Position numbers and translations under genes: made by a program. A stretch of 58,254 nt of DNA from assembly GCA_900617105.1 (NCBI GenBank), contig UYFQ01000055.1, positions 1 through 58,254 of the forward strand. Reading direction: 5' to 3'. Below the pieces are notes generated by a model. That model searched no databases. It saw only the letters and a list, made by a program, of their open reading frames with translations, and was not told the origin of the DNA. The DNA comes from Hydrurus foetidus. Its lineage: Eukaryota. This document shows positions 1-58,254 of the stretch, in pieces (positions within the stretch are counted from its first letter, which is position 1; each line of letters starts with the position of its first letter).

Positions 1-79
1 GTACCTTCTGTTGCATCCCTAACTAATTAGCTCCTTTTAGCCTTTAGACTTCCCTTCTCTTTTGCCTTCCAAGGTCACA
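1..79 (+). repeat. 3' end of a short Gypsy LTR (same family as 28462-28668) abutting the chromodomain end of Gypsy-1
   Basis: 1-79 aligns to 28590-28668 (…CTTTTAGCCTTTAGACTTCCCTTCTCTTT…CCAAGGTCACA); ends in CA. Confidence 0.85.
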
Positions 80-3156: not shown

Positions 3157-3158
3157 TA

Positions 3159-4871: not shown

Positions 4872-5366
4872 AACTTTGACGTGATGGTTTAAGTTGGAGG
4901 AGTCGAAGACAAAAAGTCGGAAAAGAGAAAAACTTTCTCGGAGGAAACTTCGGTGAAGACCGAATATCGATATTGTGGTCTGACGGCGGGGCCTAGGACG
5001 GGAGGCGAAGTTGGAGAAGGCGGAGGACGGAAGGCGTGGGCAAACGAAGGCAAAGTCGAGAGTCGGTGGAATAGACTTGTGTTAGTATCTTACAGTTGAG
5101 TATATACAAGTGATGTGTACGCTAAGTGCATTCACGTCATATGTGGAACTAAGACCTAAAAGTGGAATCTGAGCGTAATATACCTATTGTACCTAGTTAA
5201 CCTAGACACATTGTATTCCCTTAGGAATGCAATAAGGCTACAATAGCACGAATCTCATGACTGCACACGATATGATCTGTGAATCTTCCATAGATTTTGA
5301 ATAGAGGAATCATATATGGAGTGATGTATGATATGCTACTAAATGATAGGAAGTGTTATAGTTACA

Positions 5367-6122: not shown

Positions 6123-7035
6123 TGTAAGACTAAATACAAGATGTCACCTTCTAGCGTTCGCAGCGAAGGTGGAGAAGCAGCTGCAGGCTACTGTCTCAAT
6201 TCAGTGAGCTATCGAGTAGACGAAGCTGTGAAGTACAACGTATTAAATTCTGATTAGAGTTTACAGATAGCCACGCAAAAGAGCTATCAGAACAGTTCAT
6301 GACAGTGAAACTACCTTGAGACAAAGTTCACAGCGAGATGTGTTGTTCATAGCATGTGCTTGAGGAACGTTGCATGAATGCTTATAGTAACGAAGTGTTT
6401 TGGCGATACTGAAGAATCATGAAAGGCGAACGTTCATTTGCGTGAGGTCAGAGGGTTCGTACTAACTGATACATGGCGATAGTACAGGGGTACGTATGCA
6501 TGTATATGTATATGAACGTACATGCGTGAGTACTAACTGCTATATGGCGATATTATAGGAGTACGTATGCATGTGTATGTATAAGAACGTACATGCGTAA
6601 GTACAGTGGTACTTACGTATGTACGCCTATACATCTATGTACTACGCTATTGGCGATCGTACATACGTACATATTATATATGTACATACATGTGTAAGTA
6701 CGTGTGTGTACGTATGCATATAATAATTTGTACTAACATGTGCACGTACGTATGTACGTGTGTGCGTGACCATACAAGTGTACGCTATGCTATATGCGTG
6801 CGTACGTACGTACGTACATATTGACTATGTACGTACATGTGTAAGTACATGTGTGTACGTATGCATAAATGAGTATGCACTAACATGTGTAAGTACGTGT
6901 GTACGTGTGCATGTTATCATATCTGCATGTGTACTTACGTACGTACGTGTCGCATAACGTACATGTATATATTTGAAACTATATTTGCAACTATATTACT
7001 ACAGACATATCTTGATAGAATCAAGTGGTCTGACA
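6123..7035 (-). repeat. Copia-A 3' LTR (913 bp, TGTCAG…CTTACA)
   Basis: TG…CA ends, preceded by the PPT TACGGGGAG; near-identical to 11956-12867 and 37243-38156. Confidence 0.95.
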
Positions 7036-7167
7036 CTCCCCGTAGTGAAGATGTAGTGTAAAATAATGCATGTTTACTTATGAGCTACCTTTATAATATT
7101 AGAATTAACATAGTATATGTGTGATCAAGACAAATACAATATTAAAACATAATTAGTATAGTGCTGT

Positions 7168-10100
7168 TTAAAGATTTCGTCTCTGAGACTGATCTATAAT
7201 TTGATTTAGAAGTTTATTAAATATTGGTAGAGAAACTCTTTTTGTACCAATATCTGAATTATTATCGCACGATTTAACTTTAACAACTACGCAAGTACCA
7301 TCAGCAACCTTCTCTTTGACCCAGTTTTCGGTGAGGTCGAGGTGCCTTAGGTTGCGTGTCATGTGTGCTGCCTTAGAATGGTATATACAGGCTTGGTTGT
7401 CTTCTTCAATAGAGGTTGGACCTTGGACCCATCCCATCATGTTTAGGATGCCTCTGTTGGCTATGACCTCTGCTTTGAGTGTGTGGTTGACAGCCTTGAT
7501 TTCCGACTCTGCCGTTGATGTTGATATGCTGCCTTGGTCGGTGGAACACCAGCAGATAAGGTTACGGCCGAGGTATCCAAGGTATGCAGTCTGGGAGTGG
7601 CTATTGTCGGGATTACCACCCAAATCTGCATCGCATTGAAACCGGAGTTGAAGTAGCGTTGTCATAGTCTCGATGTCTCTGGGTCCATCGTGTCCATGGA
7701 ACACTAGTCGATCACTTCGTGCGTACTTGCAGTACTGCAGTAAGTGTTTGAGGAATTTAATATGTCTGGGACCTGGGTTGTTACCATAGCGGGATAGTAC
7801 ATTGAGTGCATACAGAATGCCGACCATGGTATGTACCATACCGTACATTAGTTGACCCACGACCCTCCTGTACGGGTACTTCATACACTGCATACGTTCC
7901 TCAGGGGTAGAAGCGTTGTCTAGTTTCGACAATGCAGGTTCTTGGTCCCCAGTCGGGTATGGTAAGTGCATGTCCTTTGCACCAGATATATTAGCCTCTT
8001 TTATTATTGAATCAATCATGCGATGTTGATCCATATAATATGTGCCATCTTCATCACGCTGAATACGAATACCAACGAACTCCTTGTCAGTTGCATCAGT
8101 GACTTCATACTTGTGTGCATTGAAGGTGGCGATGATCAGATCCCATTCATCAAGTTTGTCCGAAGGACCAAACCATCTGAAGTCATCACTGTGAGCGATG
8201 ATAAGCATGGGTCTACCATCTGTGGTCCATTTAAAGAAGAACTTGAGGTCCCAGGGTGTGTTCTTGTAACCACACTCGAAGATACAAATATCAAACTCAA
8301 TGGAAAAGTTTTGCCCTGCAGGTGGGAATCCATAAAGATTGCCGACAGCCTGAAAGCAGAAACCGGGTGGGCAAGTGTATCCCTGCGGTGTCTTTATGTG
8401 CACCGGGAAGTTAACATTTGCTCTTGTAATGAGGTAAGCACCAATGAGGTCACCTCCTTTCATTACTAGTCCATATGCTGCTGCAATGCTTAGTGCCATC
8501 TTGATGGAACACGATGATACATTTCCGCAGTATACGGCGTCGGGGTCGAAGTCCACGAGTGGTATCATCATATCTCCCCGTCCCACTAAACGGGCCTTTT
8601 TCGTACCGTCGGTTTTTATACTAAAAAGCCACATCATTGGTACCAGGTGTTGGTCAATGTATGGTACTACATGTAAACATGAGTTCTTCTCGAATTTCTT
8701 TAATTCAGTATCTATTGCGTTTTTCCATTCAGGTATAGCCATAGCTTTCCAGAATGATTTTGGCACATTGAGTTGATCGAAATTGATGAAGAGTTTTTCG
8801 TGATGACTTGCTTCAATCAATGAGAGAAAATGTTCGTGATTTCTAACATGAGTAGAGTACCAGTAGACAGCATCGTCATTTTCAATGTTTTGAATCGGTG
8901 TATTAATACCAATGTCATTATCATCGATGTCGGATTTGTTATTTGTATCTCTAATTGGTGTTGGATCAAACGGTATATTCTGTTTTGTTGATTTGATATT
9001 AGTCGATCCAGATTTATTAACAATTTTGTTATTGTTAATGACATTTGGATGTATTTTCGCTGGAATAGGATTTTCAGGAGTTCGATTCTGAATAATGCAA
9101 GGTATTACAGGTACAGGGTGTATTGGAATAGCTGGAGTTGCTAGTTGTTGTTCAGAATCTTTTTCAACTACCTTGTTAGCTGGTAGGACTGCAGAGATAT
9201 CGTTATTGATATTCTGGTGTAAATTAGAAAAGTCAAGATCGGATGGGTACTCGTCCGTGTAATTATAATTATTGTCTTTGTCGAAAATGACGTCCTTACT
9301 TGTCCTAATTTTGCCGAAGATTCCGGTTGGTAGTATTTCGATGACCTTAAAACAAGGCTCGAGCGTTCTCGATAAATCGTAACCAACGAATCTGGCTTTG
9401 TATGCACGAGGAAAACCGATTTTTCCTTTCCTATCTTCAAGCGCGATGTGAACCCAACATAAGCTCCAAAAGGCCTTGAGGTTCTTGAGGATTACATGCT
9501 TTCCAGTGATGAGATGATACGGTGATGTCTTGATTGCTGAATGGTAATTGAATGCATGGGTGATGCATGTATACTCAAAGGCAAGATCCCAGAACTTCTG
9601 TGGTACTGACATCCCTAAAGGTTGCATGGTGATGTTGCACTTCATCGATAAGACGCCTACTGCACGTTCTGCGATTCCATTTGCATGTTTGTCGCGAGGT
9701 GGTGTTGGCTCAAGTCGATATCCGAAGTTGTGAAGGCATTGAAGGAATTCAGCTGACCGATAAGATTTCTCTGCATCGGCTCTGATGAATCGGTCTACGC
9801 CTGGAAGCGAGGGCTTCCACTCAGGATGTGATTGGAAGAGGGTGGAGAAGCTTTTAACAAGTTCTGCAGCTCCCCGGTCTTTCGTGAAGCATGGATAACT
9901 TCGTCTTGTAGATAAGTCCGTGATAATATCGCAGTACTTATAACCGGCCTGTGACCGGTGTGTATGTGTATACGCGTCAAGTGAGAATTGACTGCCGTAG
10001 CAAGGAGATGGCAAACGGTGTATACGAAGATGGTCCGTAGAGGTCTGTCGCATCGTGCCCTGTACGCATGCTGCGCATATTGGTCTTGGTGTAGATGCAT

Positions 10101-10242
10101 CCAAGTTGGAGTAGTGTGCTCCAATGGTGTGCTGTCGGTGCCAGGCCATACCCTCTTCGCCAGGGTGTCCTAGTACGCGATGCACGTGGTCGTAAATCGA
10201 AAGCTCCTTTACACTCGTGACCAAGAGTTGAGCCGGTTGCAC
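7168..10242 (-). CDS. pol: Copia-A1 integrase-RT-RNase H (1024 aa, intact)
   Basis: HRVLGH…CAAC, AERAV, KKARLVGRG, LYGF, HSDD, CDADL, STAESE, NSDIGTK. Confidence 0.95.
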   Translation of the reverse strand: MQPAQLLVTSVKELSIYDHVHRVLGHPGEEGMAWHRQHTIGAHYSNLDASTPRPICAACVQGTMRQTSTDHLRIHRLPSPCYGSQFSLDAYTHTHRSQAGYKYCDIITDLSTRRSYPCFTKDRGAAELVKSFSTLFQSHPEWKPSLPGVDRFIRADAEKSYRSAEFLQCLHNFGYRLEPTPPRDKHANGIAERAVGVLSMKCNITMQPLGMSVPQKFWDLAFEYTCITHAFNYHSAIKTSPYHLITGKHVILKNLKAFWSLCWVHIALEDRKGKIGFPRAYKARFVGYDLSRTLEPCFKVIEILPTGIFGKIRTSKDVIFDKDNNYNYTDEYPSDLDFSNLHQNINNDISAVLPANKVVEKDSEQQLATPAIPIHPVPVIPCIIQNRTPENPIPAKIHPNVINNNKIVNKSGSTNIKSTKQNIPFDPTPIRDTNNKSDIDDNDIGINTPIQNIENDDAVYWYSTHVRNHEHFLSLIEASHHEKLFINFDQLNVPKSFWKAMAIPEWKNAIDTELKKFEKNSCLHVVPYIDQHLVPMMWLFSIKTDGTKKARLVGRGDMMIPLVDFDPDAVYCGNVSSCSIKMALSIAAAYGLVMKGGDLIGAYLITRANVNFPVHIKTPQGYTCPPGFCFQAVGNLYGFPPAGQNFSIEFDICIFECGYKNTPWDLKFFFKWTTDGRPMLIIAHSDDFRWFGPSDKLDEWDLIIATFNAHKYEVTDATDKEFVGIRIQRDEDGTYYMDQHRMIDSIIKEANISGAKDMHLPYPTGDQEPALSKLDNASTPEERMQCMKYPYRRVVGQLMYGMVHTMVGILYALNVLSRYGNNPGPRHIKFLKHLLQYCKYARSDRLVFHGHDGPRDIETMTTLLQLRFQCDADLGGNPDNSHSQTAYLGYLGRNLICWCSTDQGSISTSTAESEIKAVNHTLKAEVIANRGILNMMGWVQGPTSIEEDNQACIYHSKAAHMTRNLRHLDLTENWVKEKVADGTCVVVKVKSCDNNSDIGTKRVSLPIFNKLLNQIIDQSQRRNL

Positions 10243-11955
10243 TCAGTTGGAGTCCAGCAAGTAGAGGCCTTCCTCTACCTTGCCACTCATAACTGGGTGA
10301 GCTGTCTTTGAAATTGTCTGAAGGTGTGGGATGACATCTATCGCATTAAAGAACTTGCAGTCCTTAGAGGTGAAGATGCCCACAAATCCCTTTGCACACG
10401 CTTGAGACACTGAGAGCAGTGTGGTATCATTCATTTGATCGATGACAATAGTCTTGAGCATGAATGGTGGGAGTAGTCCCATCTCAGTAGGCTGGGCAGT
10501 CTCCCCGAAAGCTGCTGAGACACTGCATGATGTAGGTCTAAGGTCACGGAGACTGCTGCGCAATCCAGTACCAGATGTAGATGCACCACTGTCAATGACT
10601 GTCTTGTGACTTGTCTTCTTGAATGACATGAATTTGCTGTCTTTGTCTGTAACTGTAAGTAAGTTGAGACTCTTCTTCTCAGCCAGTGCTCTTGCCTTTG
10701 CACGACGTGTGGCAGACACTGAATCTCTTGATGGTGATTTGGCTGGTGGAGTGCGCATTCGATATGGCTCAGGGGTTGCCAGATCTGCCATTGGAGGATG
10801 CAAAATATCTTGTGTAGATTGCTGAGAGTCGAGTGCCATGGGAGGATGCTCCAGTTGCAATGGCTGCTGCTCTTCCTCCTTGATTGGATATTGGACTGGT
10901 GCAATCATACGAGGTACACCAGCAGTCTTAAGTGCTGGAACAATATCATCAGTAACAAGAGGAGGGTCTTGAAGCATTGGTGGAGCATGCATTGAGCTGG
11001 ATGTTCCAGGTGTCTCCTTGAACTCATTGTCATCTGATGTTTTGATGATCTTCCTGCGTGCTGGACGCTTGGTATCAGTCTGGATTGACGCCCACAGACT
11101 GCGTTTATGACCCATCACGTATGGGTGATTGTATCGGGTCAGGTCTTCTTGGCATCTCCTGTGATGATCAGATGATGACCCTGGTGGAGTCATGTCTATG
11201 TCATCACCTTCTGATTCATCGTCACTATATTCGTCGTCATCATCATCATCATCATCATCATCATTTTCTTCAGTGTGGTCAGTCGTCTCACTGAGCAGGT
11301 CCTCTCTGTTGATGGCACTCATACGTGAATATGATGTCGTGATTGGGCTTGTCTGCAATGCATAAGACTGTGGTGCTGGAGGCATTGGTTTGATGTTGTT
11401 GATGATTGCAGAGAAAGCATCGTGGAAGACTATCTGATCCAAGAACTGTGCGTTGGATCGATATGTATTCAATGTGAATAACACATTTGCTCTTGTCTGG
11501 GATTCGTCAGCTTGCATTTGCACTGCATCACGAAGTAGTTGAGCGCAGAATGACATGAAGTCGTAGATAATAGCCAAAGAGAGAATACGTAGAAGTCGCC
11601 ATGGAATGTCAGGATGCTCCATGATGTATCTGATAGCAACAAAGTACTTCTCCACGTTTCTCATATTTGATTGGTAGAACCCATAATCGTCGGAATGATA
11701 AAATTTGTCGGAGAGAGGGTTGAAGTTCATATAACTGAAATTTTCGGAACCCTCCCTGTCTGGAATCAACACGTCGGCGTTCAAGAACCTGTTTCCAATT
11801 TTGTAAAGCATTCGCATAAGCCGTTTGTCTGCTGTACGAACATCTTCTCGGATTTTCACGGATCTCGAGATGGTTGGACTCTCTGAAAGCCATGTGAATG
11901 CCACCAAGATGTGTACCATCCTTGGTTCAGCTGCTGTCAGGTCTTGGAAGCTGAC
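10243..11955 (-). pseudogene. gag: Copia-A1 truncated gag-protease
   Basis: VIDSGAS protease; ends GLYLLDSN-TGA in frame with pol. Confidence 0.9.
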
Positions 11956-12867
11956 GTCAGACCACTTGATTCTATCAAGATATGTCTGTAGTAATATAGT
12001 TGCAAATATAGTTTCAAATATATACATGTACGTTATGCGACACGTACGTACGTAAGTACACATGCAGATATGATAACATGCACACGTACACACGTACTTA
12101 CACATGTTAGTGCATACTCATTTATGCATACGTACACACATGTACTTACACATGTACGTACATAGTCAATATGTACGTACGTACGTACGTACGCATATAG
12201 CATAGCGTACACTTGTATGGTCACGCACACACGTACATACGTACGTGCACATGTTAGTACAAATTATTATATGCATACGTACACACACGTACTTACACAT
12301 GTATGTACATATATAATATGTACGTATGTACGATCGCCAATAGCGTAGTACATAGATGTATAGGCGTACATACGTAAGTACCACTGTACTTACGCATGTA
12401 CGTTCTTATACATACACATGCATACGTACTCCTATAATATCGCCATATAGCAGTTAGTACTCACGCATGTACGTTCATATACATATACACGCATACGTAC
12501 CCCTGTACTATCGCCATGTATCAGTTAGTACGAACCCTCTGACCTCACGCAAATGAACGTTCGCCTTTCATGATTCTTCAGTATCGCCAAAACACTTCGT
12601 TACTATAAGCATTCATGCAACGTTCCTCAAGCACATGCTATGAACAACACATCTCGCTGTGAACTTTGTCTCAAGGTAGTTTCACTGTCATGAACTGTTC
12701 TGATAGCTCTTTTGCGTGGCTATCTGTAAACTCTAATCAGAATTTAATACGTTGTACTTCACAGCTTCGTCTACTCGATAGCTCACTGAATTGAGACAGT
12801 AGCCTGCAGCTGCTTCTCCACCTTCGCTGCGAACGCTAGAAGGTGACATCTTGTATTTAGTCTTACA
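11956..12867 (+). repeat. Copia-A 5' LTR (terminal T missing)
   Basis: GTCAGACCAC…TAGTCTTACA followed by the PBS. Confidence 0.95.
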
Positions 12868-12879
12868 TGGTAGCGATTG
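12868..12879 (+). promoter_or_regulatory. Primer-binding site TGGTAGCGATTG (probably initiator tRNA-Met)
   Basis: Directly after the LTR CA; TGG complements the tRNA CCA; same 12-mer after the Copia-C and Copia-D LTRs. Confidence 0.85.
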
Positions 12880-12954
12880 TTTATAGTGATTAAACGATTG
12901 CCGTGGATTCCAGGATTCTGAATTTCCTTCCTCAACTTTCAGAACCCTGCAATC

Positions 12955-15900
12955 ATGAGTGATAATGGATCTGAAGACGAGTTCGAGCTGTCCAACACAG
13001 ACTCTCCGCCGGCTCTTGCCGACCTCCTTCAACATCCGTTCAGAACTCTGATCGAAGCAGCTCAACCCATCTTCACTGGTCGAGTTACAAGATCTAGGAC
13101 AGGAGCAATTCCTCCTTTAGAAAATCCAAATAGTGATTTTCTAGACGAGGTGGAATTAGCCCTTCAAAATCAGGAGGTTGTTCCGACACCACCTTTAGCA
13201 CCTCGGGCGCGGAATCTCGGAGCCACAGCGACAACTTTATTTTCGGACAATTTGGAGGCTCAGGATGCAGAGACAAGATTTTCCTTCGCCGATGTGGCAA
13301 GGCTCATCGACATTATGTCTTCTAAGATCCAACAGCCTCCACCGTTGGTCTCCCAACCGAAATCAACAGTTGGATCTGCCTCTATTCCAACTGCTTCAAC
13401 GCCCAAGGCTTCTTCTATCTTATCGGTGCCCATATCGGAATACCTGGATACAACCTCTGCGCAATCGAAATTCTTCTTTTCGATGCCCAAGTTTTCCAAC
13501 TCTGGGAAGGACAACCGCGACAACATGGAAACGTTCATGGTCGCTCTAGGTGAATGTAAACTTCTTACATTAGCCAAAGGCGATCGTGAGTTACCAGTCA
13601 TTACTGCTCGGAACCCTGGAGGGTATTCACCTAGGTCACTGGTATTAGCAGAAGAAGGATTGTATGATGTCATCCCAGCTGATGACATCTACAAAAGATT
13701 ACACGATTTGGATCGCTTATTGGTTATTCTCAATATGGTTACTGGGAAAGATCTACATTATTTGATCAAGCGTGTGATTGCCGACAACGATGCGGTCTTA
13801 TGGTTCAAGACTATCTACGATCACATCAACGGCACAAAGAACAGCGACATCAGGAAGGCAACGGATCAGCTCCACTCCCTGAAGCTCAAGTCCACACAAA
13901 CCATTCAGGAGAATGTGGCAACCATCGAAGAGGCCTTCAGAGTCCTCAAAGTCGCAAGTGGCGTGCCCGTCACTGATGATCAAAAGCTTTATCATCTACA
14001 AGAAAAGCTGGAGCATGATGCAAGATTCAGCGTCTTATCAATCATGGCCTCATCAAAGACGTCAAAGGCATCCTACGACGACACCATCAAATACCTTGTG
14101 CTTCTTGATCCTGCCCCAGCGGTAGCTCACAAGATGGCTTCCCTTACTCCAACCTTGGAGCTGTGCAGACGTCACATCGCTGGCCTATGTACCAACGGTT
14201 CCTCATGCAAGTATTCACATGCAGCAGCGCCGCCAAACAAGGGAGCACCATCTGACAAGAAGCCCAACAAGAACCCACCTCCTCTCAAGAAAGATCAGAA
14301 GACTCCACCGAAGTTTCCTTTCAAGAAACCAATCATCGTGTCAGATTCCCATCGATCACTGGTTGGATATCCCAAAGGAGTTGCAACGGCAAAGAACCCA
14401 GCTGGATATTCGCTGAACCAACTTACAACCATCAGGACTTTGCAATCTGCTGATGTTGACGGCTGGACAACAGGAGATCCTCAGTATTTCAATGGCGATG
14501 GATCGAGCAACCATATCGATCGGTTCAATGTTCTTCGCTTCAAGGAACAATCAACGACATCCATTGCAGAGTTCCCAGAGTTCTACCACCTTGAGCCCTT
14601 TCCAAGACTTCGTGAGATCAGACGTCACCTGTTCACAATGCTCAACTCGGTCGAGAAGTATAACAGATTCGCCGGTTCATCTCCCAGCGACTACGATGGA
14701 TCTCCTACTGATCCTCTCTCCGGAATTGTTGTCAGCTTCCAAGACCTGACAGCAGCTGAACCAAGGATGGTACACATCTTGGTGGCATTCACATGGCTTT
14801 CAGAGAGTCCAACCATCTCGAGATCCGTGAAAATCCGAGAAGATGTTCGTACAGCAGACAAACGGCTTATGCGAATGCTCTACAAAATTGGAAACAGGTT
14901 CTTGAACGCCGACGTGTTGATTCCAGACAGGGAGGGTTCCGAAAATTTCAGTTATATGAACTTCAACCCTCTCTCCGACAAATTCTATCATTCCGACGAC
15001 TATGGGTTCTACCAATCAAACATGAGAAACGTGGAGAAGTACTTTGTTGCTATCAGATACATCATGGAGCATCCTGACATTCCATGGCGACTTCTACGTA
15101 TTCTCTCTTTGGCTATTATCTACGACTTCATGTCATTCTGCGCGCAACTACTTCGTGATGCAGTGCAAATGCAAGCTGACGAATCCCAGACAAGAGCAAA
15201 TGTGTTATTCACATTGAATACATATCGATCCAACGCACAGTTCTTGGATCAGATAGTCTTCCACGATGCTTTCTCTGCAATCATCAACAACATCAAACCA
15301 ATGCCTCCAGCACCACAGTCTTATGCATTGCAGACAAGCCCCATCACGACATCATATTCACGTATGAGTGCCATCAACAGAGAGGACCTGCTTAGTGAGA
15401 CGACTGACCACACTGAAGAAAATGATGATGACAATGATGATGATGATGACGATGAATATAGTGACGATGAATCAGAAGGTGATGACATAGACATGACTCC
15501 ACCGGGGTCATCATCTGATCATCACAGGAGATGCCAAGAAGACCTGACCCGATACAATCACCCATACGTGATGGGTCATAAACGCAGTCTGTGGGCGTCA
15601 ATCCAGACTGATACCAAGCGTCCAGCACGCAGGAAGATCATCAAAACATCAGATGACAATGAGTTCAAGGAGACACCAGGAACATCCAGCTCAATGCATG
15701 CTCCACCAATGCTTCAAGACCCTCCTCTTGTTACTGATGATATTGTTCCAGCACTTAAGACTGCTGGTGTACCTCGTATGATTGTATCAGTCCCATATAC
15801 GATCAAGGAGGAAGAGCAGCAAACATTGCAGCTGGAGCATCCTCCCATGTCACTCGACTCTCAGCAATCTACACAAGATATTTTGCATCCTCCAATGGCA

Positions 15901-16443
15901 GATCTGGCAACCCCTGAGCCATATCGAATGCGCACTCCGCCAGCCAAATCACCATCAAGAGATTCAGTGTCTGCCACACGTCGTGCAAAAGCAAGAGCAC
16001 TGGCTGAGAAGAAGAGTCTCAACTTACTTACAGTTACAGACAAAGACAGCAAATTCATGTCATTCAAGAAGACAAGTCACAAGACAGTCATTGACAGTGG
16101 TGCATCTACATCTGGTACTGGATTGCGCAGCAGTCTCCGTGACCTTAGACCTACATCATGCAGTGTCTCAGCAGCTTTCGGGGAGACTGCCCAGCCTACT
16201 GAGATGGGACTACTCCCACCATTCATGCTCAAGACTATTGTCATCGACCAAATGAATGATACCACACTGCTCTCAGTGTCTCAAGCGTGTGCAAAGGGAT
16301 TTGTGGGCATCTTCACCTCTAAGGACTGCAAGTTCTTTAATGCGATAGATGTCATCCCACACCTTCAGACAATTTCAAAGACAGCTCACCCAGTTATGAG
16401 TGGCAAGGTAGAGGAAGGCCTCTACTTGCTGGACTCCAACTGA
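12955..16443 (+). CDS. gag: Copia-A2 Gag-protease (1162 aa) with CCCH finger and extra domain
   Basis: Open ORF; CRRHIAGLCTNGSSCKYSH; VIDSGAS; GLY motif before the TGA. Confidence 0.92.
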   Translation: MSDNGSEDEFELSNTDSPPALADLLQHPFRTLIEAAQPIFTGRVTRSRTGAIPPLENPNSDFLDEVELALQNQEVVPTPPLAPRARNLGATATTLFSDNLEAQDAETRFSFADVARLIDIMSSKIQQPPPLVSQPKSTVGSASIPTASTPKASSILSVPISEYLDTTSAQSKFFFSMPKFSNSGKDNRDNMETFMVALGECKLLTLAKGDRELPVITARNPGGYSPRSLVLAEEGLYDVIPADDIYKRLHDLDRLLVILNMVTGKDLHYLIKRVIADNDAVLWFKTIYDHINGTKNSDIRKATDQLHSLKLKSTQTIQENVATIEEAFRVLKVASGVPVTDDQKLYHLQEKLEHDARFSVLSIMASSKTSKASYDDTIKYLVLLDPAPAVAHKMASLTPTLELCRRHIAGLCTNGSSCKYSHAAAPPNKGAPSDKKPNKNPPPLKKDQKTPPKFPFKKPIIVSDSHRSLVGYPKGVATAKNPAGYSLNQLTTIRTLQSADVDGWTTGDPQYFNGDGSSNHIDRFNVLRFKEQSTTSIAEFPEFYHLEPFPRLREIRRHLFTMLNSVEKYNRFAGSSPSDYDGSPTDPLSGIVVSFQDLTAAEPRMVHILVAFTWLSESPTISRSVKIREDVRTADKRLMRMLYKIGNRFLNADVLIPDREGSENFSYMNFNPLSDKFYHSDDYGFYQSNMRNVEKYFVAIRYIMEHPDIPWRLLRILSLAIIYDFMSFCAQLLRDAVQMQADESQTRANVLFTLNTYRSNAQFLDQIVFHDAFSAIINNIKPMPPAPQSYALQTSPITTSYSRMSAINREDLLSETTDHTEENDDDNDDDDDDEYSDDESEGDDIDMTPPGSSSDHHRRCQEDLTRYNHPYVMGHKRSLWASIQTDTKRPARRKIIKTSDDNEFKETPGTSSSMHAPPMLQDPPLVTDDIVPALKTAGVPRMIVSVPYTIKEEEQQTLQLEHPPMSLDSQQSTQDILHPPMADLATPEPYRMRTPPAKSPSRDSVSATRRAKARALAEKKSLNLLTVTDKDSKFMSFKKTSHKTVIDSGASTSGTGLRSSLRDLRPTSCSVSAAFGETAQPTEMGLLPPFMLKTIVIDQMNDTTLLSVSQACAKGFVGIFTSKDCKFFNAIDVIPHLQTISKTAHPVMSGKVEEGLYLLDSN

Positions 16444-19400
16444 GTGCAACCGGCTCAACTCTTGGTCACGAGTGTAAAGGAGCTTTCGATTTATGACCAC
16501 GTGCATCGCGTACTAGGACACCCTGGCGAAGAGGGTATGGCCTGGCACCGACAGCACACCATTGGAGCACACTACTCCAACTTGGATGCATCTACACCAA
16601 GACCAATATGCGCAGCATGCGTACAGGGCACGATGCGACAGACCTCTACGGACCATCTTCGTATACACCGTTTGCCATCTCCTTGCTACGGCAGTCAATT
16701 CTCACTTGACGCGTATACACATACACACCGGTCACAGGCCGGTTATAAGTACTGCGATATTATCACGGACTTATCTACAAGACGAAGTTATCCATGCTTC
16801 ACGAAAGACCGGGGAGCTGCAGAACTTGTTAAAAGCTTCTCCACCCTCTTCCAATCACATCCTGAGTGGAAGCCCTCGCTTCCAGGCGTAGACCGATTCA
16901 TCAGAGCCGATGCAGAGAAATCTTATCGGTCAGCTGAATTCCTTCAATGCCTTCACAACTTCGGATATCGACTTGAGCCAACACCACCTCGCGACAAACA
17001 TGCAAATGGAATCGCAGAACGTGCAGTAGGCGTCTTATCGATGAAGTGCAACATCACCATGCAACCTTTAGGGATGTCAGTACCACAGAAGTTCTGGGAT
17101 CTTGCCTTTGAGTATACATGCATCACCCATGCATTCAATTACCATTCAGCAATCAAGACATCACCGTATCATCTCATCACTGGAAAGCATGTAATCCTCA
17201 AGAACCTCAAGGCCTTTTGGAGCTTATGTTGGGTTCACATCGCGCTTGAAGATAGGAAAGGAAAAATCGGTTTTCCTCGTGCATACAAAGCCAGATTCGT
17301 TGGTTACGATTTATCGAGAACGCTCGAGCCTTGTTTTAAGGTCATCGAAATACTACCAACCGGAATCTTCGGCAAAATTAGGACAAGTAAGGACGTCATT
17401 TTCGACAAAGACAATAATTATAATTACACGGACGAGTACCCATCCGATCTTGACTTTTCTAATTTACACCAGAATATCAATAACGATATCTCTGCAGTCC
17501 TACCAGCTAACAAGGTAGTTGAAAAAGATTCTGAACAACAACTAGCAACTCCAGCTATTCCAATACACCCTGTACCTGTAATACCTTGCATTATTCAGAA
17601 TCGAACTCCTGAAAATCCTATTCCAGCGAAAATACATCCAAATGTGATTAACAATAACAAAATTGTTAATAAATCTGGATCGACTAATATCAAATCAACA
17701 AAACAGAATATACCGTTTGATCCAACACCAATTAGAGATACAAATAACAAATCCGACATCGATGATAATGACATTGGTATTAATACACCGATTCAAAACA
17801 TTGAAAATGACGATGCTGTCTACTGGTACTCTACTCATGTTAGAAATCACGAACATTTTCTCTCATTGATTGAAGCAAGTCATCACGAAAAACTCTTCAT
17901 CAATTTCGATCAACTCAATGTGCCAAAATCATTCTGGAAAGCTATGGCTATACCTGAATGGAAAAACGCAATAGATACTGAATTAAAGAAATTCGAGAAG
18001 AACTCATGTTTACATGTAGTACCATACATTGACCAACACCTGGTACCAATGATGTGGCTTTTTAGTATAAAAACCGACGGTACGAAAAAGGCCCGTTTAG
18101 TGGGACGGGGAGATATGATGATACCACTCGTGGACTTCGACCCCGACGCCGTATACTGCGGAAATGTATCATCGTGTTCCATCAAGATGGCACTAAGCAT
18201 TGCAGCAGCATATGGACTAGTAATGAAAGGAGGTGACCTCATTGGTGCTTACCTCATTACAAGAGCAAATGTTAACTTCCCGGTGCACATAAAGACACCG
18301 CAGGGATACACTTGCCCACCCGGTTTCTGCTTTCAGGCTGTCGGCAATCTTTATGGATTCCCACCTGCAGGGCAAAACTTTTCCATAGAGTTTGATATTT
18401 GTATCTTCGAGTGTGGTTACAAGAACACACCCTGGGACCTCAAGTTCTTCTTTAAATGGACCACAGATGGTAGACCCATGCTTATCATCGCTCACAGTGA
18501 TGACTTCAGATGGTTTGGTCCTTCGGACAAACTTGATGAATGGGATCTGATCATCGCCACCTTCAATGCACACAAGTATGAAGTCACTGATGCAACTGAC
18601 AAGGAGTTCGTTGGTATTCGTATTCAGCGTGATGAAGATGGCACATATTATATGGATCAACATCGCATGATTGATTCAATAATAAAAGAGGCTAATATAT
18701 CTGGTGCAAAGGACATGCACTTACCATACCCGACTGGGGACCAAGAACCTGCATTGTCAAAACTAGACAACGCTTCTACCCCTGAGGAACGTATGCAGTG
18801 TATGAAATACCCGTACAGGAGGGTCGTGGGTCAACTAATGTACGGTATGGTACATACCATGGTCGGCATTCTGTATGCACTCAATGTACTATCCCGTTAT
18901 GGTAACAACCCAGGTCCCAGACATATCAAATTCCTCAAACACTTATTGCAGTACTGCAAGTACGCACGAAGTGATCGACTAGTGTTCCATGGACACGATG
19001 GACCCAGAGACATCGAGACTATGACAACGCTACTTCAACTCCGGTTTCAATGCGATGCAGATTTGGGTGGTAATCCCGACAATAGCCACTCCCAGACTGC
19101 ATACCTTGGATACCTCGGCCGTAACCTTATCTGCTGGTGTTCCACCGACCAAGGCAGCATATCAACATCAACGGCAGAGTCGGAAATCAAGGCTGTCAAC
19201 CACACACTCAAAGCAGAGGTCATAGCCAACAGAGGCATCCTAAACATGATGGGATGGGTCCAAGGTCCAACCTCTATTGAAGAAGACAACCAAGCCTGTA
19301 TATACCATTCTAAGGCAGCACACATGACACGCAACCTACGGCACCTCGACCTCACCGAAAACTGGGTCAAAGAGAAGGTAGCTGATGGTACTTGCGTACT

Positions 19401-19518
19401 TGTTAAAGTTAAATCGTGCGATAATAATTCAGATATTGGTACAAAAAGAGTTTCTCTACCAATATTTAATAAACTTCTAAATCAAATTATAGACCAGTCT
19501 CAGAGACGAAATCTTTAA
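16444..19518 (+). CDS. pol: Copia-A2 integrase-RT-RNase H, in frame with gag-PR across one TGA
   Basis: Same motifs as copy 1; begins GTG immediately after the TGA, with no ATG before the HHCC motif. Confidence 0.95.
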   Translation: MQPAQLLVTSVKELSIYDHVHRVLGHPGEEGMAWHRQHTIGAHYSNLDASTPRPICAACVQGTMRQTSTDHLRIHRLPSPCYGSQFSLDAYTHTHRSQAGYKYCDIITDLSTRRSYPCFTKDRGAAELVKSFSTLFQSHPEWKPSLPGVDRFIRADAEKSYRSAEFLQCLHNFGYRLEPTPPRDKHANGIAERAVGVLSMKCNITMQPLGMSVPQKFWDLAFEYTCITHAFNYHSAIKTSPYHLITGKHVILKNLKAFWSLCWVHIALEDRKGKIGFPRAYKARFVGYDLSRTLEPCFKVIEILPTGIFGKIRTSKDVIFDKDNNYNYTDEYPSDLDFSNLHQNINNDISAVLPANKVVEKDSEQQLATPAIPIHPVPVIPCIIQNRTPENPIPAKIHPNVINNNKIVNKSGSTNIKSTKQNIPFDPTPIRDTNNKSDIDDNDIGINTPIQNIENDDAVYWYSTHVRNHEHFLSLIEASHHEKLFINFDQLNVPKSFWKAMAIPEWKNAIDTELKKFEKNSCLHVVPYIDQHLVPMMWLFSIKTDGTKKARLVGRGDMMIPLVDFDPDAVYCGNVSSCSIKMALSIAAAYGLVMKGGDLIGAYLITRANVNFPVHIKTPQGYTCPPGFCFQAVGNLYGFPPAGQNFSIEFDICIFECGYKNTPWDLKFFFKWTTDGRPMLIIAHSDDFRWFGPSDKLDEWDLIIATFNAHKYEVTDATDKEFVGIRIQRDEDGTYYMDQHRMIDSIIKEANISGAKDMHLPYPTGDQEPALSKLDNASTPEERMQCMKYPYRRVVGQLMYGMVHTMVGILYALNVLSRYGNNPGPRHIKFLKHLLQYCKYARSDRLVFHGHDGPRDIETMTTLLQLRFQCDADLGGNPDNSHSQTAYLGYLGRNLICWCSTDQGSISTSTAESEIKAVNHTLKAEVIANRGILNMMGWVQGPTSIEEDNQACIYHSKAAHMTRNLRHLDLTENWVKEKVADGTCVLVKVKSCDNNSDIGTKRVSLPIFNKLLNQIIDQSQRRNL

Positions 19519-19649: not shown

Positions 19650-20262
19650 TGTCAGACCACTTGATTCTATCAAGATATGTCTGTAGTAATATAGTTGCAA
19701 ATATAGTTTCAAATATATACATGTACGTTATGCGACACGTACGTACGTAAGTACACACAGATACATAACATGCACATACATACGTACATACAGTAGTACA
19801 TAGTCACAGGTGTAGTACAACACAATGTTAGTACACGCATACGTACACACATACTACGTCTACACAGTATTACATATATAATATGTACGTATGTACAATA
19901 GCGTAGTACATAGATGTATAGCGTACTACGTAATACTGCCGATGTACGTTCTTATCATACACATGCATACGTACTCTATAATATCGCCATATAGCAGTTA
20001 GTACTCACGCATGTACGTTCATATACATATACACGCATACGTACCCTGTACTATCGCCATGTATCAGTTAGTACGAACCCTCTGACCTCACGCAAATGAA
20101 CGTTCGCCTTTCATGATTCTTCAGTATCGCCAAAACACTTCGTTACTATAAGCATTCATGCAACGTTTCAAGGCTGCTATGAACAACACATCTCGCTGAA
20201 CTTTGTCCGGTGCGTCACTGTCATGAACTGTTCGCTCATGGGCGTGGCTATCTCACTCTAAT
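19650..20262 (+). repeat. Copia-A LTR-like segment, degraded after ~19755
   Basis: Exact LTR start, then many scattered small deletions relative to the other LTR copies. Confidence 0.75.
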
Positions 20263-26900: not shown

Positions 26901-27023
26901 TTAAGCTGTAGTATCGTCGTAGCCTTCTGCAGCGTCCACTTAGAAGTTAACGAGCTTCTAGCCTAGCGCCTTGTAACTAAGCCTACCACTCCTCGACCCC
27001 TTTCTGCATCTCTCCCGACCACA
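23993..27023 (+). mobile_element. pol: Gypsy-2 chromovirus 3' half (RT-RH-IN-chromodomain, frameshifted) with PPT and probable 3' LTR 26816-27023
   Basis: MDLTAGYHQ, YLDD, SDRG, ERVN, YFVEKVLSH…VKW…TWEPW; GATAAGTGGGGGTAA PPT. Confidence 0.88.
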
Positions 27024-31600: not shown

Positions 31601-31739
31601 TGACGTTGAGGCTACATCCGGTGTCCCAGAATCCTGAGTGTTTGTTTGCTGGTAGGTTAGCTAAGTACGAGAGTTGGTCAGTAGTAGGTATAGGGTCGGG
31701 TTCTGAAGGGATGGGTAGAGGGGCCGAGTCCCCTATGAC
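28669..31739 (-). pseudogene. pol: Copia-B pol (PR-IN-RT, frameshifted)
   Basis: Motifs spread over ORFs 30723-31538, 30014-30940 and 28626-29558. Confidence 0.85.
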
Positions 31740-47825: not shown

Positions 47826-50800
47826 TCAGTAGGGAGTCTCCACGTAGAGGCCGTCTTGGACGGTTCCACGGGTGACCTCCTTTCCATGCTGAGCTACCAG
47901 TGCAATGTAGGGAAGGGCTGATGCAGTCTCATAGAAGCGGAAGTCTTTATGAGTGAAGATGCCGATGAAGTGGTCGTTGGTGACACCGCCAGCGCAGAAC
48001 TGGGAGACAGAGACAAGGGTGCTGTCGCCTAGTGCAGGGAGAAGGAGGGTGCTAAGCTCCAACGGTCCGAGGCTGCCTTGGTGTGTTGGTGTCATGGACG
48101 GACCGAATGCAGGGGTGACTGTGACGGATGTGCTGACAGGTTCAATGCTGGTAAGACGTTGGGAGCGGCCGGTGCCAGAGCGTGAAGCACCAGAGTCGAA
48201 GATGACCTTGTCGGGGACGTGGAACGAGTTGAGTCTCTCATGTTGGGACTTGACGACGAATGTGTTGAGCTTGGAGTCGGAGGTACCGCCGGATGGTGCA
48301 GGAGGGCGAGCTGATGCAAGCGGAGGGCGAGTACTGTTGAAGGCATGTCGGACATTTGTCGAGCGTTGAGATCCGACTGGTGGAGTCATTCGGTGGCGCT
48401 GGGCACGAGGCATAGTGAAAGGCGAGTCGGATGCAAGTGGTTGCGCGGCTTGCCAACGTTTGAGTGACCCGGTAAGAGGGTCAGAGGGTGTCGATGGAAC
48501 AGGTGGTAACGGAGTATTGAACTCCGGAAGCGTAGTGGGAATCGATGTTGAAGGTGAGGCGGAAGAGGATGCTGACGAGGACGAGGTAGTGTCTTGACGC
48601 TTAGTGTCCCCTTGAGCCTGGTCTTTCTGGAATGCGATGCCGCGCTTCCTGGCGTTGTACCGCTGAAGTTCCATGGATGCGTCCGGTGGTACCCATGGGG
48701 ATGCGTCTGATGGAGGGACCATGAGACGTGTGACGGCTCCATGTAGGTAGTTGACATAAGAGAGGGCGCATCGAGGGCCACTGATGTTATGTGTTGGACA
48801 GGACATGTTGTACGGGAGGAAACAGATGGAGTCTTCGACAGAGGACTCTGAATCGCTCTCATAGTTCCGCAAAGTGTATCTTTGGCGTATGTTCTGTGGG
48901 GCTGTAGATGCTGCGAGGTCCCTGGCGAGAGATACTGTGCGGTAGTGTGACTCGGTGGGTTCAACAGGATCGGGTCCGACGAAGAGGCTGTTGGGTGTAA
49001 CATGAAATGCATCGGGTAGGACATGCTGGATTACGACTCGAATAGCTTGGATGAATGACTCGTTCGATCCAGTTCGTGTCATAAGACCGTCAACGTGCGC
49101 ATCAACTTCCGTGAGCATGAGTATGCGAAGAGTGGGAATGTTGTGCCAGGAGTTGCCGGGTGCATTGGCATATCGGGCAAGCTGTGCTGCGACCCAGGAG
49201 GCACAGTCGTAGATGAGGACACTTTCAAATATCGCCATGTGGTCTGGACTGATCTGGTCGTCGAGGTACAGAGCAGTGTGGACGAGGAAGTAAAAGAAAA
49301 TGTTCCCGACTGTGGACTGATAGGTGGTGATGTCTTCAATCAAGGTTGGATTGAAGGTGCGGTAGTGCCCTGGGTCATACTCAAGATTGGGTGGAGTCGG
49401 CGGCTCAGTGTTGGCGAGCAGCAGGTTGCGAGCAATCTTGTGGATGAGGTTCATATACCGAGAGTATCCGTCTCTGACATCAGCGCGGCAGTTGCTGAGG
49501 GTGGTTGGGGATACCCAGCCGAAAATAGCGAGGTATATATGAGGCGCCGGTGTAGGGGATCCAGGCAAGGCGGGACGGTTCACATAGATGATGAAGTCAT
49601 TTGCTGAGAGGGGCTGCTGATGAATGCGGTGGTGGACCACAGTGTAGTACTGAAGGATGTACGTGGAGCATTGTCGGCAGATACCCTGGAAGACAGTGGA
49701 GGAGGTGACTTCGTCATTGGTGAGGAAGGCCCAGGTACGTGTGAAGGCATCGACTTCTTCTTGCATTGGGGTCCCATATGTTGGCGAGGAGATGTTCTGA
49801 TGGCGCGGCGTGTCCCATGCTGTAGCATTCTCTGGGGCGACAGGAGTCGGGGGTACCCAGGAGTACTGGGGTAGATGCTGGTTGAGTATGTTCGGAACGT
49901 ACGTACGGTCGGAGCATTAAGGGAGAGGCGGCATTAGAAGATGGACGAGTTGGAGATCGCAGTGGTGAGTGTCCTGATGGAGGGAGTCCTGGCGGAAGTG
50001 CTAACTCGAGAGGAGGATTAGACGGTGTATCCGGAGGAGGTGCTGGGTCAGTGTCGGTGACTCGGAACATGTTGAGGGAGAAGCGCACATACCCGGAGGG
50101 TTCGGCGTTATCCAAAAGCGTGTTGTTCTGCCATCCGTCCTCAGGGTTGATGTTGGGTCCGTTGGTAAGAAGCTTCATGGGGATGTTGCTCTTGAGGTAA
50201 GGGACGCGGCCATCGATACTCGTCACTGGGAAGGTCTGCTTGGGAGGGTACTTGCCCTTGGCTTTGATCCGGTTCTTGTCCGTGACTGGAGCGGATCCAG
50301 GTGGGGCAGGAGGATGTGCTTTGCCAGAGGGAGGTGTCGCTGCCGGTGGCTTAGCAGGAGCATGATAGTACTTGCACTTGTTACCGAGAAGGCAGGTACC
50401 AGCGAGGAACTTGCGGCAGGCTTCAGGGGTAGTGGACAAGGCAGCTATCTTGACCGGCTTGTCTTGTAGGAGGGCATACTCGGAATAGACAACAGCTCTC
50501 TCCAAAGTTTGGTGATAGGTGAGCATGTTGCTATGGCAGGACATAAAGTAGGATTTGGTGTTGGGGCGGTGGTCGTTCATGAAGGCGTTGTGAAGGAATT
50601 GAAGGCGCTCCTGCTCGGTGCTCGGTCTGGCCTGGGCATACTCGAATTCTGTCATTAACGTTGTAAACCTCACTAAATCCTCTTGAAAACAAGTAGCCGT
50701 GGAGCCCTTGAAGTTTTGTAGAAGCCGCCGAAGTCGGTTGATGTCTGCTTCAGTATGTCCGTAGTAGTGCTTGTGCATACGTTTATAAATAGCGATCCCA

Positions 50801-53975: not shown

Positions 53976-56900
53976 TGTCAGCTTATATCAGCGATAAGTG
54001 CTATTTATAGCTGTATATAGCCGTTATAATCATCAATATGTAGCTAGGAATATCTCATACGTAAGTACATATATGCAGTTCGTAACTACATACAATGATC
54101 ACTTTAAGTCGCTTCCTCAATGCTTATCGTATCATGTATAGTGTCATTGTTGTGGGTTCATGACCGCATATTTAGTATAGATTCCAGATTTTATGGTATG
54201 AGGGTACGAGAACTTTTCCATGTGTGATGTATGGTTTGAAGTATATCTCGTCGCTCGTCAACGTAGGCTTAAATCTACGAGTTCAAATTCAAATCTAAAA
54301 TGGATGACGAATGAGATCTTATTGACTTGCGGCAGGTAGAATGATGTTCATCATGCAACGTCTTTTCAATTCGCATGTGTTTAGTTTCTAATTCTTAACG
54401 AATATTCGATACTCAACTCCCATAACTTCTTCGCCTGGTCGCTTGTGCTCTTGGCCTTCTGCGACCTCATTGATCGTCCCTGATCAACTGACATGGTAGC
54501 GATTGAAGCCTGAAGACTTCAAAGATAAGTTACCCGATTCCCCGTCCAAAATGATGCGAACAAGATCTGGCGCTGGTGGCGATTCACCCGATGCCGAAGA
54601 TGACTTCAGCGAGGAAATCACCGACGACGGCCCTCCTCCGCCGCAAAATGATATGTCCGACATGGATCCTGCTTTGGAAGAGCAGGTGCTTGAGACCAAC
54701 GTTGACGTTGTGTTTGATAGCTCTGCCTTCCAGGCAGCTGTAGATAGGGAAGTTGCCCGAGTTCTTAGGCAGAGAGAGAATGATGCGAAGGTTGATGCCC
54801 CTTATGGGACAGTCGACATTGCTCTACGGGCGGATCTGCCGTTGCGCGATCAGCCCCACTCTCGAACCCTATTACCTCGGGCGAATCCACCCATTGTGAG
54901 AATGTCCAGCGCGTATATGTCCGAGAATGTTGAACAAAGTAGCATAAGAAAAATCAATCCAATGAATAATGAGGGGGGAAACTCTGGCAAAAATTTTTCC
55001 AACCCTATGAATATTGATCGATTCAGCTACTCCAACAACAATATTTCTCAACAACGACGCGATTCTGATGCGTGGAACCAAAATTATAGTCGGCGCGAAA
55101 GTCCTAGTTGGAATAATAACAATAGTTCTCAACAACAACGCAGTCCGAATAATAACAACACATCTAATAGATCCCAGCAAGAACGTGCGGAAAATATTAG
55201 ACAGTCCTCTTCTCCTCCCAATATTCATGAGTATGAATCTGAGGAAAGCTACAATAGAAGAACGCCAAAACTTCGGCATAGATTAGTCCCTCAGACTACA
55301 TATATCAAAGTTGCGCAAGTCTTCATAAGTGAATGTGAAAAGAACAAGATAGATATGCATACCCCGACAAATTTCGTCGATTACGGGGATTACATGCTAC
55401 ATTAGCCAATGCTGATTTACTTACTCTCTTGACCGGACATCGTCCGCAACCTGTCATAGATCTTGAAGTAAATAAGTACGGTTACTCAGAAAGCCGTGTA
55501 ATTAACATACCTGTTCTTTCCAAACTGATGAGGATTCTTCATCTGTCTTCTCTACGAATAACACAACTCATTTCGAGGACGTTATGTTGAAAGAAGACGA
55601 TGCCTTTAAGTTTAAATATGATAATGAGAGATTGTATTCATTGGTATTCGCCATGTTTCATCAAAATCTTCACCATCATGTTACAATCCAAAGCGAATCC
55701 ACCCGCAATGGGATTAATGCATATCATGATATTCATCAATTTGTGTTCGGTCAGAAGCAAATCGATATTAAGTTCGCCAAACGCGCTCTTGAAAATCATA
55801 AAGTAAATATACATTCTCCCATGCGGACAGAATATTCTCGATGGGAAACCGCGTTCTCTAACCTCGAGCATGCCCAAATGCGGCGCCTAACTGAAGTTGA
55901 AAAAATATCTTGGCTATCAGATCAATTCAAAGATGATCCCAGATCCCAAATACAATCCTGCTTCGTTTCAAGTGCGTCCAGTAATGAATCTTATAGTCTG
56001 ATTATAGAGAAACTTCTCCGTACATACGATCTCATATCCGAAAATATCACATCTCGTGTTGCAAGTTTCGATACCTCCAATATGACTTCCAGTAGTACCG
56101 AGCCTCATATCCTATATCAAAATACTCTTTCAAATTCTAGTGCTCCTCCTCCAAATCTTCCTCTTCAAAACAAGTATAAACCTAATAACAATTATGACCC
56201 CAATAAGTCAGCCAGTCAAAAGAATGCCAAGACTCAACCACCAAAAGTTGACAGTCGAAATAGTGACAAAAAGAGATTAGCTGCCGGAGGCTTCTGTTTT
56301 AAGTTCAATATGGATGTGTGCCCTAAGTCGGCTCAAGAATGTAAATATAAGCATGAAATTATGCCGCAAGACTTTCGACCTCCTACACCTCCTCGTCGTG
56401 ATAATTATCCGGTATCCTCGGCCAAAACCCAACCGGCTAATCCCGTATATCCTAACCCAAGTTTCAAGTTAACTCAAATTCAACTTGATTCTGTGGGACC
56501 TATGTCTGGCAATGCTCATGGCAGATATGCTGGCGGATATTCTCAAAATCAAATTAAGAAATTAAAGACTTTGGAAGAGGTACTAAATCAAGCCACTACA
56601 CCCACTGAGCATCGTGTTCAAGCGTTCTCCAGTTGGGGCAATCCATCTCAGCCTGCATATACAACGCATGGTGAGAAAGCAAATACACTAATGAGAATTC
56701 GAATCGACCCGAATAATCAGCGTATATTAAAGACGCAACGGTTAGATAATTCTTGTCATAATAAAGATTATTCAAATAAGATTACAGAGAATGATTTAAA
56801 AAACAATCAGAGATGTTTACTTCAAAATGTAAATAATGAATACTCCGCATGCACCATCCCTCTTCGCGCTATTATTGCGTCGATACTTCTAGCCGAACAA

Positions 56901-58254
56901 TATTACGTCTTTCACAGACATGTTCCGCACTATAATAGAACTGATCCTTCAGTATCGATTACACCATTCCATTTCTTGTGGAAACGTACACGTACTATCA
57001 AAGATAATCAAGAACGTGATAATCAATATACTGACATCTTTCAATGGCATTCGAATCCTATGGCGCGTAAACGTAAAGACATACGTGATCGTACAGTCCC
57101 ATGGATGCATCTGATGTATTGTATTGCATCTACATTAATGCAATCAATAGTCATCCTTCCTTCTGCTGAAAAAGTGGCCTCATCACGGCACTTCATGACA
57201 TTCAACCCTTATGCTGCCAGCAGAGAGTACTATCTCACTTCACTTCGCATCGGACATTTCTGGTCCCAGATGACTACTGTGAGTGAATATGTTGAACTCA
57301 TTCGACGACTCGAGCAGAGTGCTCATCACAACACTGTTAATCATAACATGTTGTTCGTTGACACAGTAATACATGCTGTTATCCTTGACTTCATGGCATT
57401 TGCCGGTCAACATTTAGGTTACTATCATGATCAGTCTACACCACGCAAGGAAGATTTCCTTCGTCGTTTTCTATTCAATGATATCGAAGAACAAACAGAA
57501 CCTTCATTCTGTTATAATGGAATCAAAGCAACTTTTCATCTCATTGCCCGATTAATCAAACCCATCAAAGATCCCATCAAACGAGCTCTCTCTTCCGCAT
57601 TAACAAAAAAGTTGATGAATGTCTATCTGTTCAAGAGCGCCCTATCGATGGTACTAGCTTTCGTCCTAGAAATGAACCTCTCATTAGAGTCATTTACTCG
57701 CGCGCAGATTCTCCTAGTTTAGCAAACGAACCATCGGATCAAATGCGTCACGGGTCCCACTCAAGTCCACGTGGTTTACAACACTACGATGATGATGATA
57801 ATCTTAGGCACGATGATACAAGTAGTGGTAGTGACAGCGGTCCTGAAAGTGAGCCTAGTCCTGTTCTTTCCCCTTCACAACGTGTACACATCCCTAGCCC
57901 CATTCCCCCACCATCTCGTTCAATATATCGACCTGATCCAGTATATGAGTCTCCTGCTCTTATTGGCGAACGTCGTATCATCGACTATGATGCATATTGT
58001 CAAACGTTAACACGACTTCGGAGTGATAACGACCTCAATGATTACTTCCACAGTGACGTTGAATCTGTTGAGTTAAGTGACGATGAACAAGAAGTAATGA
58101 ATAAATGGTCCAAAAATATAAGTGATGATGACGAAAATAATCCAGAAACTCCTCAAGAACGTAATCAAAGGTATCGAAATATGTTAATAGAAACAATGTC
58201 AAAATATACAAAAAGGAAATATGATACAGTAAATAGTGCAAAAAGAGAGTCAGT
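53976..58254 (+). mobile_element. Copia-D 5' part: LTR 53976-54493, PBS 54494-54505, frameshifted gag
   Basis: TGTCAG…CTGACA LTR, TGGTAGCGATTG PBS, gag homologous to A and C. Confidence 0.85.
54551..57722 (+). pseudogene. gag: Copia-D gag with CCCH finger and extra domain
   Basis: CFKFNMDVCPKSAQECKYKH; FMTFNP; AVILDFMAF; split across ORFs 54503-55405 and 55584-57722. Confidence 0.8.

Follow-up and report, generated by a model that had tools for sequence, protein, structure and literature searches.

In canonical Ty1/Copia elements, the Gag precursor consists of a capsid and a nucleocapsid only, the latter with zero to three CCHC arrays (PMC8515867; PMC2774666, in its available part). In other LTR elements, lineage-specific extras, namely Env-like proteins, chromodomains, AlkB, and GDSL or RNase D ORF3 products, are thought to aid replication or interaction with the host (PMC9289625, PMC7264820, PMC5408684 and PMC2774666, as far as their available text goes); according to the same texts, these extras are mostly separate open reading frames (ORFs) near the 3' LTR or integrase fusions, and they mostly belong to Gypsy elements. 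A screen of 121 plant genomes records no domain gain in Copia in the available part of the source (PMC9289625), and plant Copia elements are described as obtaining an excess of Gag by splicing near the protease (PMC5580714, likewise in part). A folded extra domain situated right after the nucleocapsid and borne in the particle is found in betaretroviruses (M-PMV, MMTV), namely a dUTPase, i.e. a known enzyme, which is made by frameshifting and stays fused to the nucleocapsid (PMC1802613, in its available part).

The first-pass annotation of the DNA considered here maintained that canonical Copia Gag has no folded domain between nucleocapsid and protease. The definition of the family agrees (PMC8515867), and the Gag described below departs from that definition. 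On the evidence of sequence comparison, the extra domain is judged to be genuine and to represent a new family of domains, found in a variant lineage of Copia.

The elements and their Gag precursor

The window, that is, the whole stretch of 58,254 nucleotides that was analysed (Hydrurus foetidus, contig UYFQ01000055.1), is a nest of transposable elements. Judging by their LTRs, domain order and reverse transcriptase (RT), the elements here called Copia-A, Copia-C and Copia-D are Ty1/Copia elements (Pseudoviridae). The relevant features are as follows.

11956..12867, plus strand: 5' LTR of Copia-A, followed at 12868 by the PBS-like TGGTAGCGATT
12922..16443, plus strand: Gag-PR ORF of Copia-A, 1173 aa stop to stop, first ATG at 12955, terminating at TGA
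14164..14220, plus strand: zinc finger of the CCCH type (C-x7-C-x5-C-x3-H as read from the sequence), at the nucleocapsid position
14330..14560, plus strand: conserved post-finger segment (GxPxG...GYSxxQ...W), ending in the candidate protease site RFNVL (14521)
14563..15321, plus strand: extra domain of Copia-A, aa 548-800 of the stop-to-stop ORF, in frame between CCCH finger and protease
15322..16010, plus strand: acidic, Pro/Ser/Thr-rich linker, with the candidate protease site RMSAI (15361) directly past the domain
16011..16440, plus strand: aspartic protease, DSG at 16093, 35% identical to the Copia-C protease (E 3e-26)
16441..16443, plus strand: in-frame TGA between protease and integrase of Copia-A, read from the sequence
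16444..19518, plus strand: integrase, RT and RNase H ORF of Copia-A, 1024 aa, SH3_retrovirus and RVT_2 above cut-off
11287..11952, minus strand: second Copia-A domain copy, 5'-truncated, in the minus-strand element 6123-11955
48990..49745, minus strand: domain in Copia-C, a full-length element (44241-52091)
47826..47828, minus strand: in-frame TGA between protease and integrase of Copia-C, read from the sequence
about 56820..57570, plus strand: domain in Copia-D, a degenerate copy; the window stops short of its protease

The integrase-RT-RNase H ORF of Copia-A shares its frame with the Gag-PR ORF, and in both A and C the DSG protease motif is followed by SH3_retrovirus/rve and RVT_2 (E 2.5e-16 in A, 3.4e-14 in C). 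PBS-like and PPT-TGT motifs are found in A, C and D; in a comparison among the elements, the PBS-like TGGTAGCGATT is common to all three. The 3' LTR of Copia-A is only about 82% identical to its own 5' LTR, and about 125 bases lie between the pol stop and the PPT of this element. The LTRs of Copia-C (44241-44748 and 51585-52091) are 99.6% identical, with no exact target-site duplication in the bases beside them. In the window copy of Copia-C, the frame is broken twice, upstream of the domain and again between integrase and RT; since P0008, a protein of the C family (1218 aa), is intact, the upstream break is a private lesion of this copy.

As to the surroundings of these elements, the 5' LTR of Copia-A adjoins, tail to head at 11955/11956, the opposite-strand truncated A copy, which starts within the domain, and a hAT-like transposase (20262-22806) lies downstream of the Copia-A 3' LTR. 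Gypsy-type elements or fragments occupy 37-5081 (minus), 24019-27774 (plus) and 52709-54000 (plus), and an acidic, lysine-rich ORF at 42882-44309 (plus) with no Pfam match is split by Copia-C. A different Copia-like family at 28626-32855 (minus) is free of the domain (no profile match in six frames) and serves as an internal control. The active site of Copia RTs is usually YVDD; in A, C and P0183 the motif is AHSDDF (in the window at about 18490-18510, and at 45980-45960 on the minus strand). Sequencing runs with this stretch come mostly from freshwater, biofilm, sediment and glacier samples, in 10 studies.

The Gag-PR precursor of Copia-A is composed, in this order, of a low-complexity N-terminus, a capsid-like region, the CCCH finger, the extra domain, the linker and the protease. 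Pfam yields a weak Copia capsid match and a CCCH-type finger at aa 413-433, and no match in aa 435-1030. Fingers of this type also lie at about 50430-50365 (minus) in Copia-C and at 56295-56355 in Copia-D; a nucleocapsid finger of the CCCH type is a trait of the whole clade, with no CCHC motif among the 19 long matches listed, and a search of the open-access literature found no description of a CCCH finger in Copia. The finger-to-protease distance in the clade is 480-720 aa. Low-complexity linkers had been annotated on both sides of the domain: the downstream one is indeed long and of low complexity (57% P/S/T/D/E/K/Q), but upstream there is a 35-aa Pro/Lys tract and then the conserved segment of 75 aa. 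The same order, capsid, CCCH finger, short conserved segment, domain and low-complexity linker, is present in 7 of 7 matches with a whole Gag, with the protease next in 5.

Extent, relatives and predicted fold of the domain

All motifs quoted in the first-pass annotation are real: in each of the three elements they fall in frame and align in register. In Copia-A the domain does stand in frame between nucleocapsid and protease; its length, given there as some 230 aa, is about 250 aa, within boundaries that are also delimited by an in-frame deletion in P0005. Pairwise identity among the three domains is weak (20-27%), with BLASTP E-values of 0.002 for A-C and C-D and 7e-8 for A-D, where the aligned stretch takes in the zinc finger. 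The wider family escaped word-index protein searches, which recovered close relatives only. A six-sequence profile run against 1.84 billion proteins matched 136 clusters (50% identity) at E≤0.001, 59 of them at 1e-10; because these clusters show the same motifs as A, C and D, the likeness of the latter is not due to chance. Within the window, a 99-sequence profile, trained on A, C and D among others, marks exactly four places in six frames, i.e. these three domains and a fourth, the truncated A copy.

At least 120 residues outside the domain are available in 13 of the 136 matches, and 11 of these 13 match the capsid-finger and/or protease profiles of the clade, which were built from clade members and partly from the same proteins; the remaining two have only 123-128 residues upstream. 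Independently of our own profiles, Pfam finds CCCH fingers in P0136, P0137, P0150, P0157, P0193 and P0200 (at or above the cut-off in the first five, below it in Copia-A), and rve, RVT_2, SH3_retrovirus or Pol_BBD in P0150, P0155, P0157 and P0183. None of the 136 matches shows a non-retroelement context, and every match with recognisable flanks belongs to the CCCH-Copia clade, which directly supports the clade specificity that had been proposed.

No match to a standard Gag or protease subdomain was found in Pfam or in profile comparisons. Specifically, no Pfam family is common to more than one of 99 members, and no enzyme family, dUTPase included, is among the matches; PHROGs and NCBIfam gave no match, PDB sequences gave none at E≤10 with 3- and 99-sequence profiles, again with no dUTPase, and the best tblastn hit in phages had an E of only 4. 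Against the element's own capsid and Pol, taken as single-sequence templates, the domain profile reached probabilities of 0.3% and 0.4%, so that by this comparison it is not a duplicate of either.

With 99 sequences, AlphaFold2 gave a confident model (pLDDT 88.6, pTM 0.88; 87.5-88.6 across five models; 191 of 253 residues at 90 or above); a first model from 22 sequences had a pLDDT of 61.9. The predicted fold is mostly helical, with a long N-terminal helix (16-36), a beta-hairpin (56-73), central helices (83-113) and, after a long stretch of irregular structure, four helices that make up the C-terminal part (157-243). For the first model, Foldseek against PDB and BFVD returned nothing at E≤0.001 and the VIA fold search reached at best Z 7.5. 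For the second, BFVD had no match, the wide VIA search (48,161 chains of the families listed there) gave at best Z 7.2 with PI4KIIIa (rmsd 4.6, 102 residues aligned), and a second VIA look gave Z 4.4. A structural likeness of the HEAT/MIF4G type extends over only 70-130 aligned residues at Z 4-7. In the ESM Atlas, the best scores were 0.92 and 0.86, under the Atlas's own reliability marks, and its HEAT/MIF4G-type feature matches (0.89-0.92, 111-133 shared features) are weak. Over all fold searches on the predicted models, which barely covered residues 1-75, there is no clear match; the best structural scores (Z 7.2) are those of generic helical hairpins, and a new fold is not proven.

The near-invariant columns are Y33, W78, F134, P136, G148, Y150, S152, D188, F189, M190, R211, P246 and P248, a proline column at 51 being a register shift; the polar ones among them are Y33 (34/36), S152 (84/87), D188 (78/82) and R211 (65/69). 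None of His, Cys, Lys and Glu is conserved at any column (17-25% at best). Across 32 domains, the charge is neutral (median pI 6.7, net -1.5), which argues against a plain nucleic-acid coat, and the 19-residue hydropathy maximum has a median of 1.36, with 1.8 or more in 6.

Expression, selection, loss and possible role

An in-frame TGA past the protease is also present in copies at 10240-10242 (minus) and 34034-34036 (plus), and 28 of 29 protease-bearing proteins end at the place that matches the TGA of A and C. In P0150, P0155, P0157 and P0183 there is no stop, and the protease continues via a linker of similar length into the integrase. Given these four stop-free relatives, and since neither A nor C has a Met between the TGA and the zinc-binding histidines of the integrase, bypass of the UGA would likely be needed; RNA structure near the two UGA codons is not convincing (z -0.8 to -2.0). 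A third Gag/Pol arrangement within the clade is found in P0193 and P0200, where the Gag ORF ends between domain and protease (882 aa in 4 of the 5 P0193 cluster members listed). Whether the ORF ends past the protease or ahead of it, the domain is always on the Gag side of the boundary. Lying upstream of the in-frame stop, it would be synthesised at the Gag level, and we infer that, as annotated at first, it is made at Gag stoichiometry. The first-pass interpretation is thus supported in part; among the functions then suggested, i.e. targeting, anti-silencing or a role in the particle, targeting is the least likely, as the stop separates the domain from the integrase.

Release of the domain by the element's protease is plausible from the sequence. 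Similar short hydrophobic motifs occur after the capsid, before the domain, after the domain (in the A family) and before the protease. In a leave-one-out comparison of 11 proteins, the pre-domain site ranked from 1 to 84 of about 440-710 windows, a mixed result, and a candidate post-domain site stands out in the A family alone.

Purifying selection on the domain is evident, as variants are mostly synonymous in A, in C and between the window copies. In particular, 13 of 14 domain variants are synonymous in Copia-A (expected fraction 0.27, p 5e-7; best 40 of 132 variants), 12 of 15 in Copia-C (p 5e-5; best 40 of 53 variants) and 5 of 5 in the common part of the domain of the two window copies; the variant counts span copies and strains, are skewed to common variants, and differ from a codon-model dN/dS. 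The downstream linkers are constrained as well (7/12 and 16/22 synonymous), and the contrast between domain and linker is not significant (Fisher p 0.14). Between close families, the domain diverges faster than capsid and protease (69% identity vs 81/81%; 38% vs 76/65%); among ten divergent proteins, its core is about as conserved as the capsid (median 25% vs 26%).

The domain has also been lost. Finger and protease without the domain are found in 10 of 35 proteins of at least 500 aa, in two clusters: in P0005 (901 aa) almost exactly the domain is missing, in frame, and in P0006 (710 aa) the domain and most of the linker; the post-finger segment is kept in both. Within these clusters, full-length domain-less proteins differ by 1-8 residues. 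In a tree of nine proteins (452 capsid, finger and protease columns), the domain-less ones form a single clade (bootstrap 97), whereas the outgroup C has the domain, as does D, and the absence is therefore a derived loss. Capsid, finger and protease differ between the two clusters at 21 of 380 sites and low-complexity regions at 40 of 240 (Fisher p 1e-5), so that constraint persisted after the loss. These in-frame domain-less subfamilies lend direct support to the early description of the domain as accessory, and on the sequences it looks accessory in cis. Complementation in trans could occur, the data on these subfamilies covering their Gag-PR proteins.

Our preferred reading, put forward tentatively from the sequence and the predicted model, is that the domain may be a non-catalytic accessory protein packed in the particle, released by the protease and binding the host. 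The domain is an in-frame part of the Gag precursor, under selection and predicted to fold separately; it would enter the virus-like particle at the Gag level, and the element's protease would likely release it, whereupon it would bind a host factor and so aid replication of the element. The folded model, selection, faster evolution, neutral charge, absence of the usual catalytic set and losability speak for it; against it count the mixed ranks of the cleavage motif, the chance that domain-less subfamilies are complemented in trans, the constraint on the linkers and the four stop-free relatives. An unlikely, if serious, competitor is a required structural or maturation part of the particle (scaffold, inner coat or protease-timing element) that domain-less subfamilies borrow in trans from complete elements. 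Its single position, kept across lineages at 20-30% identity, its core conserved like the capsid, its presumed synthesis with Gag and the many co-occurring families in one window suit such a part. However, Gag proteins co-assemble as whole precursors, the domain-less ORFs are open with constrained capsid and protease, and standard Copia Gag needs only capsid and nucleocapsid (PMC8515867).

Somewhat less likely again is an enzyme of unrecognised fold acting within the particle on nucleotides, RNA or a host protein. The near-invariant Y33, S152, D188 and R211 could form an active site, against the accessory reading, accompanied by the aromatics W78, F134, Y150 and F189, and there are precedents in the position of the NC-dUTPase (PMC1802613, in part) and in enzymes captured by other LTR elements (PMC9289625 and PMC5408684, in part). 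Yet D188 is the single near-invariant acid, the conserved residues include no His, Cys, Lys or Glu, the Pfam matches of 99 members include no enzyme family, and there is no non-retroelement homologue that would mark a captured host enzyme. That domain and CCCH finger act jointly on the RNA of the element, for instance to steer translation, to bypass the stop codon or to evade RNA decay, we consider improbable. The unusual finger does co-occur with the domain, A and C have the in-frame UGA, and the helical half loosely resembles HEAT/MIF4G hairpins, but Z 4-7 is within the range of generic helical matches, the net charge is neutral, the domain is retained in the stop-free relatives, and the proteins that lack it still end at the usual point past the protease. 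The low pairwise identity of A, C and D could finally mean that the alignment is an artefact, or that the region is a neutral spacer or a standard Gag/Pol subdomain that has diverged strongly; this reading is largely refuted and very improbable in view of the 136-cluster family, the confident predicted fold, the selection, the near-zero capsid and Pol profile probabilities, and the separate presence of capsid, finger and protease.

Comparison with known retroelements

The elements share with Ty1/Copia (Pseudoviridae) the LTRs, PBS, PPT, the order PR-IN-RT-RH and RVT_2 (definition in PMC8515867). What sets the clade apart is the folded (predicted) domain of 250 aa and a finger of the CCCH instead of the CCHC type; in A and C, moreover, the in-frame stop leaves the protease together with Gag. 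A Copia pol behind an in-frame UGA that requires bypass is also known from Candida albicans Tca2 (gag-UGA-pol; PMC2194720, in its available part); unlike in Tca2, the UGA here is past the protease, so that synthesis of Gag would include both the domain and the protease. A third ORF of the Sirevirus/Env-like kind was considered and rejected, the domain being inside Gag, with a median hydropathy maximum of 1.36, and A having about 125 bases from pol stop to PPT. In contrast to the extras of other LTR elements, the domain is part of the Gag precursor itself, and no homologue of it is known.

A search limited to the open-access literature yielded no description of the domain or the clade. Copia is treated as a conservative LTR superfamily; here, a whole clade has an uncatalogued domain, predicted to fold well, inside Gag. 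It is conceivable, although we consider it rather doubtful, that this is a new fold and the first retrovirus-style accessory protein in the Gag of a Ty1/Copia element. It would then travel in the particle as a counter-defence factor or an enzyme and would define, with the CCCH nucleocapsid and the Gag-side protease, an undescribed Copia lineage of freshwater eukaryotes. The domain profile is, in any case, a marker for an apparently undescribed lineage, and the natural in-frame deletion variants, the defined boundary and the confident model make the role of the domain directly testable. By analogy of position, the nearest precedent is the betaretroviral NC-dUTPase, from which the Copia domain differs in having no dUTPase match, in being mostly helical (as predicted) and in being encoded in frame with Gag.
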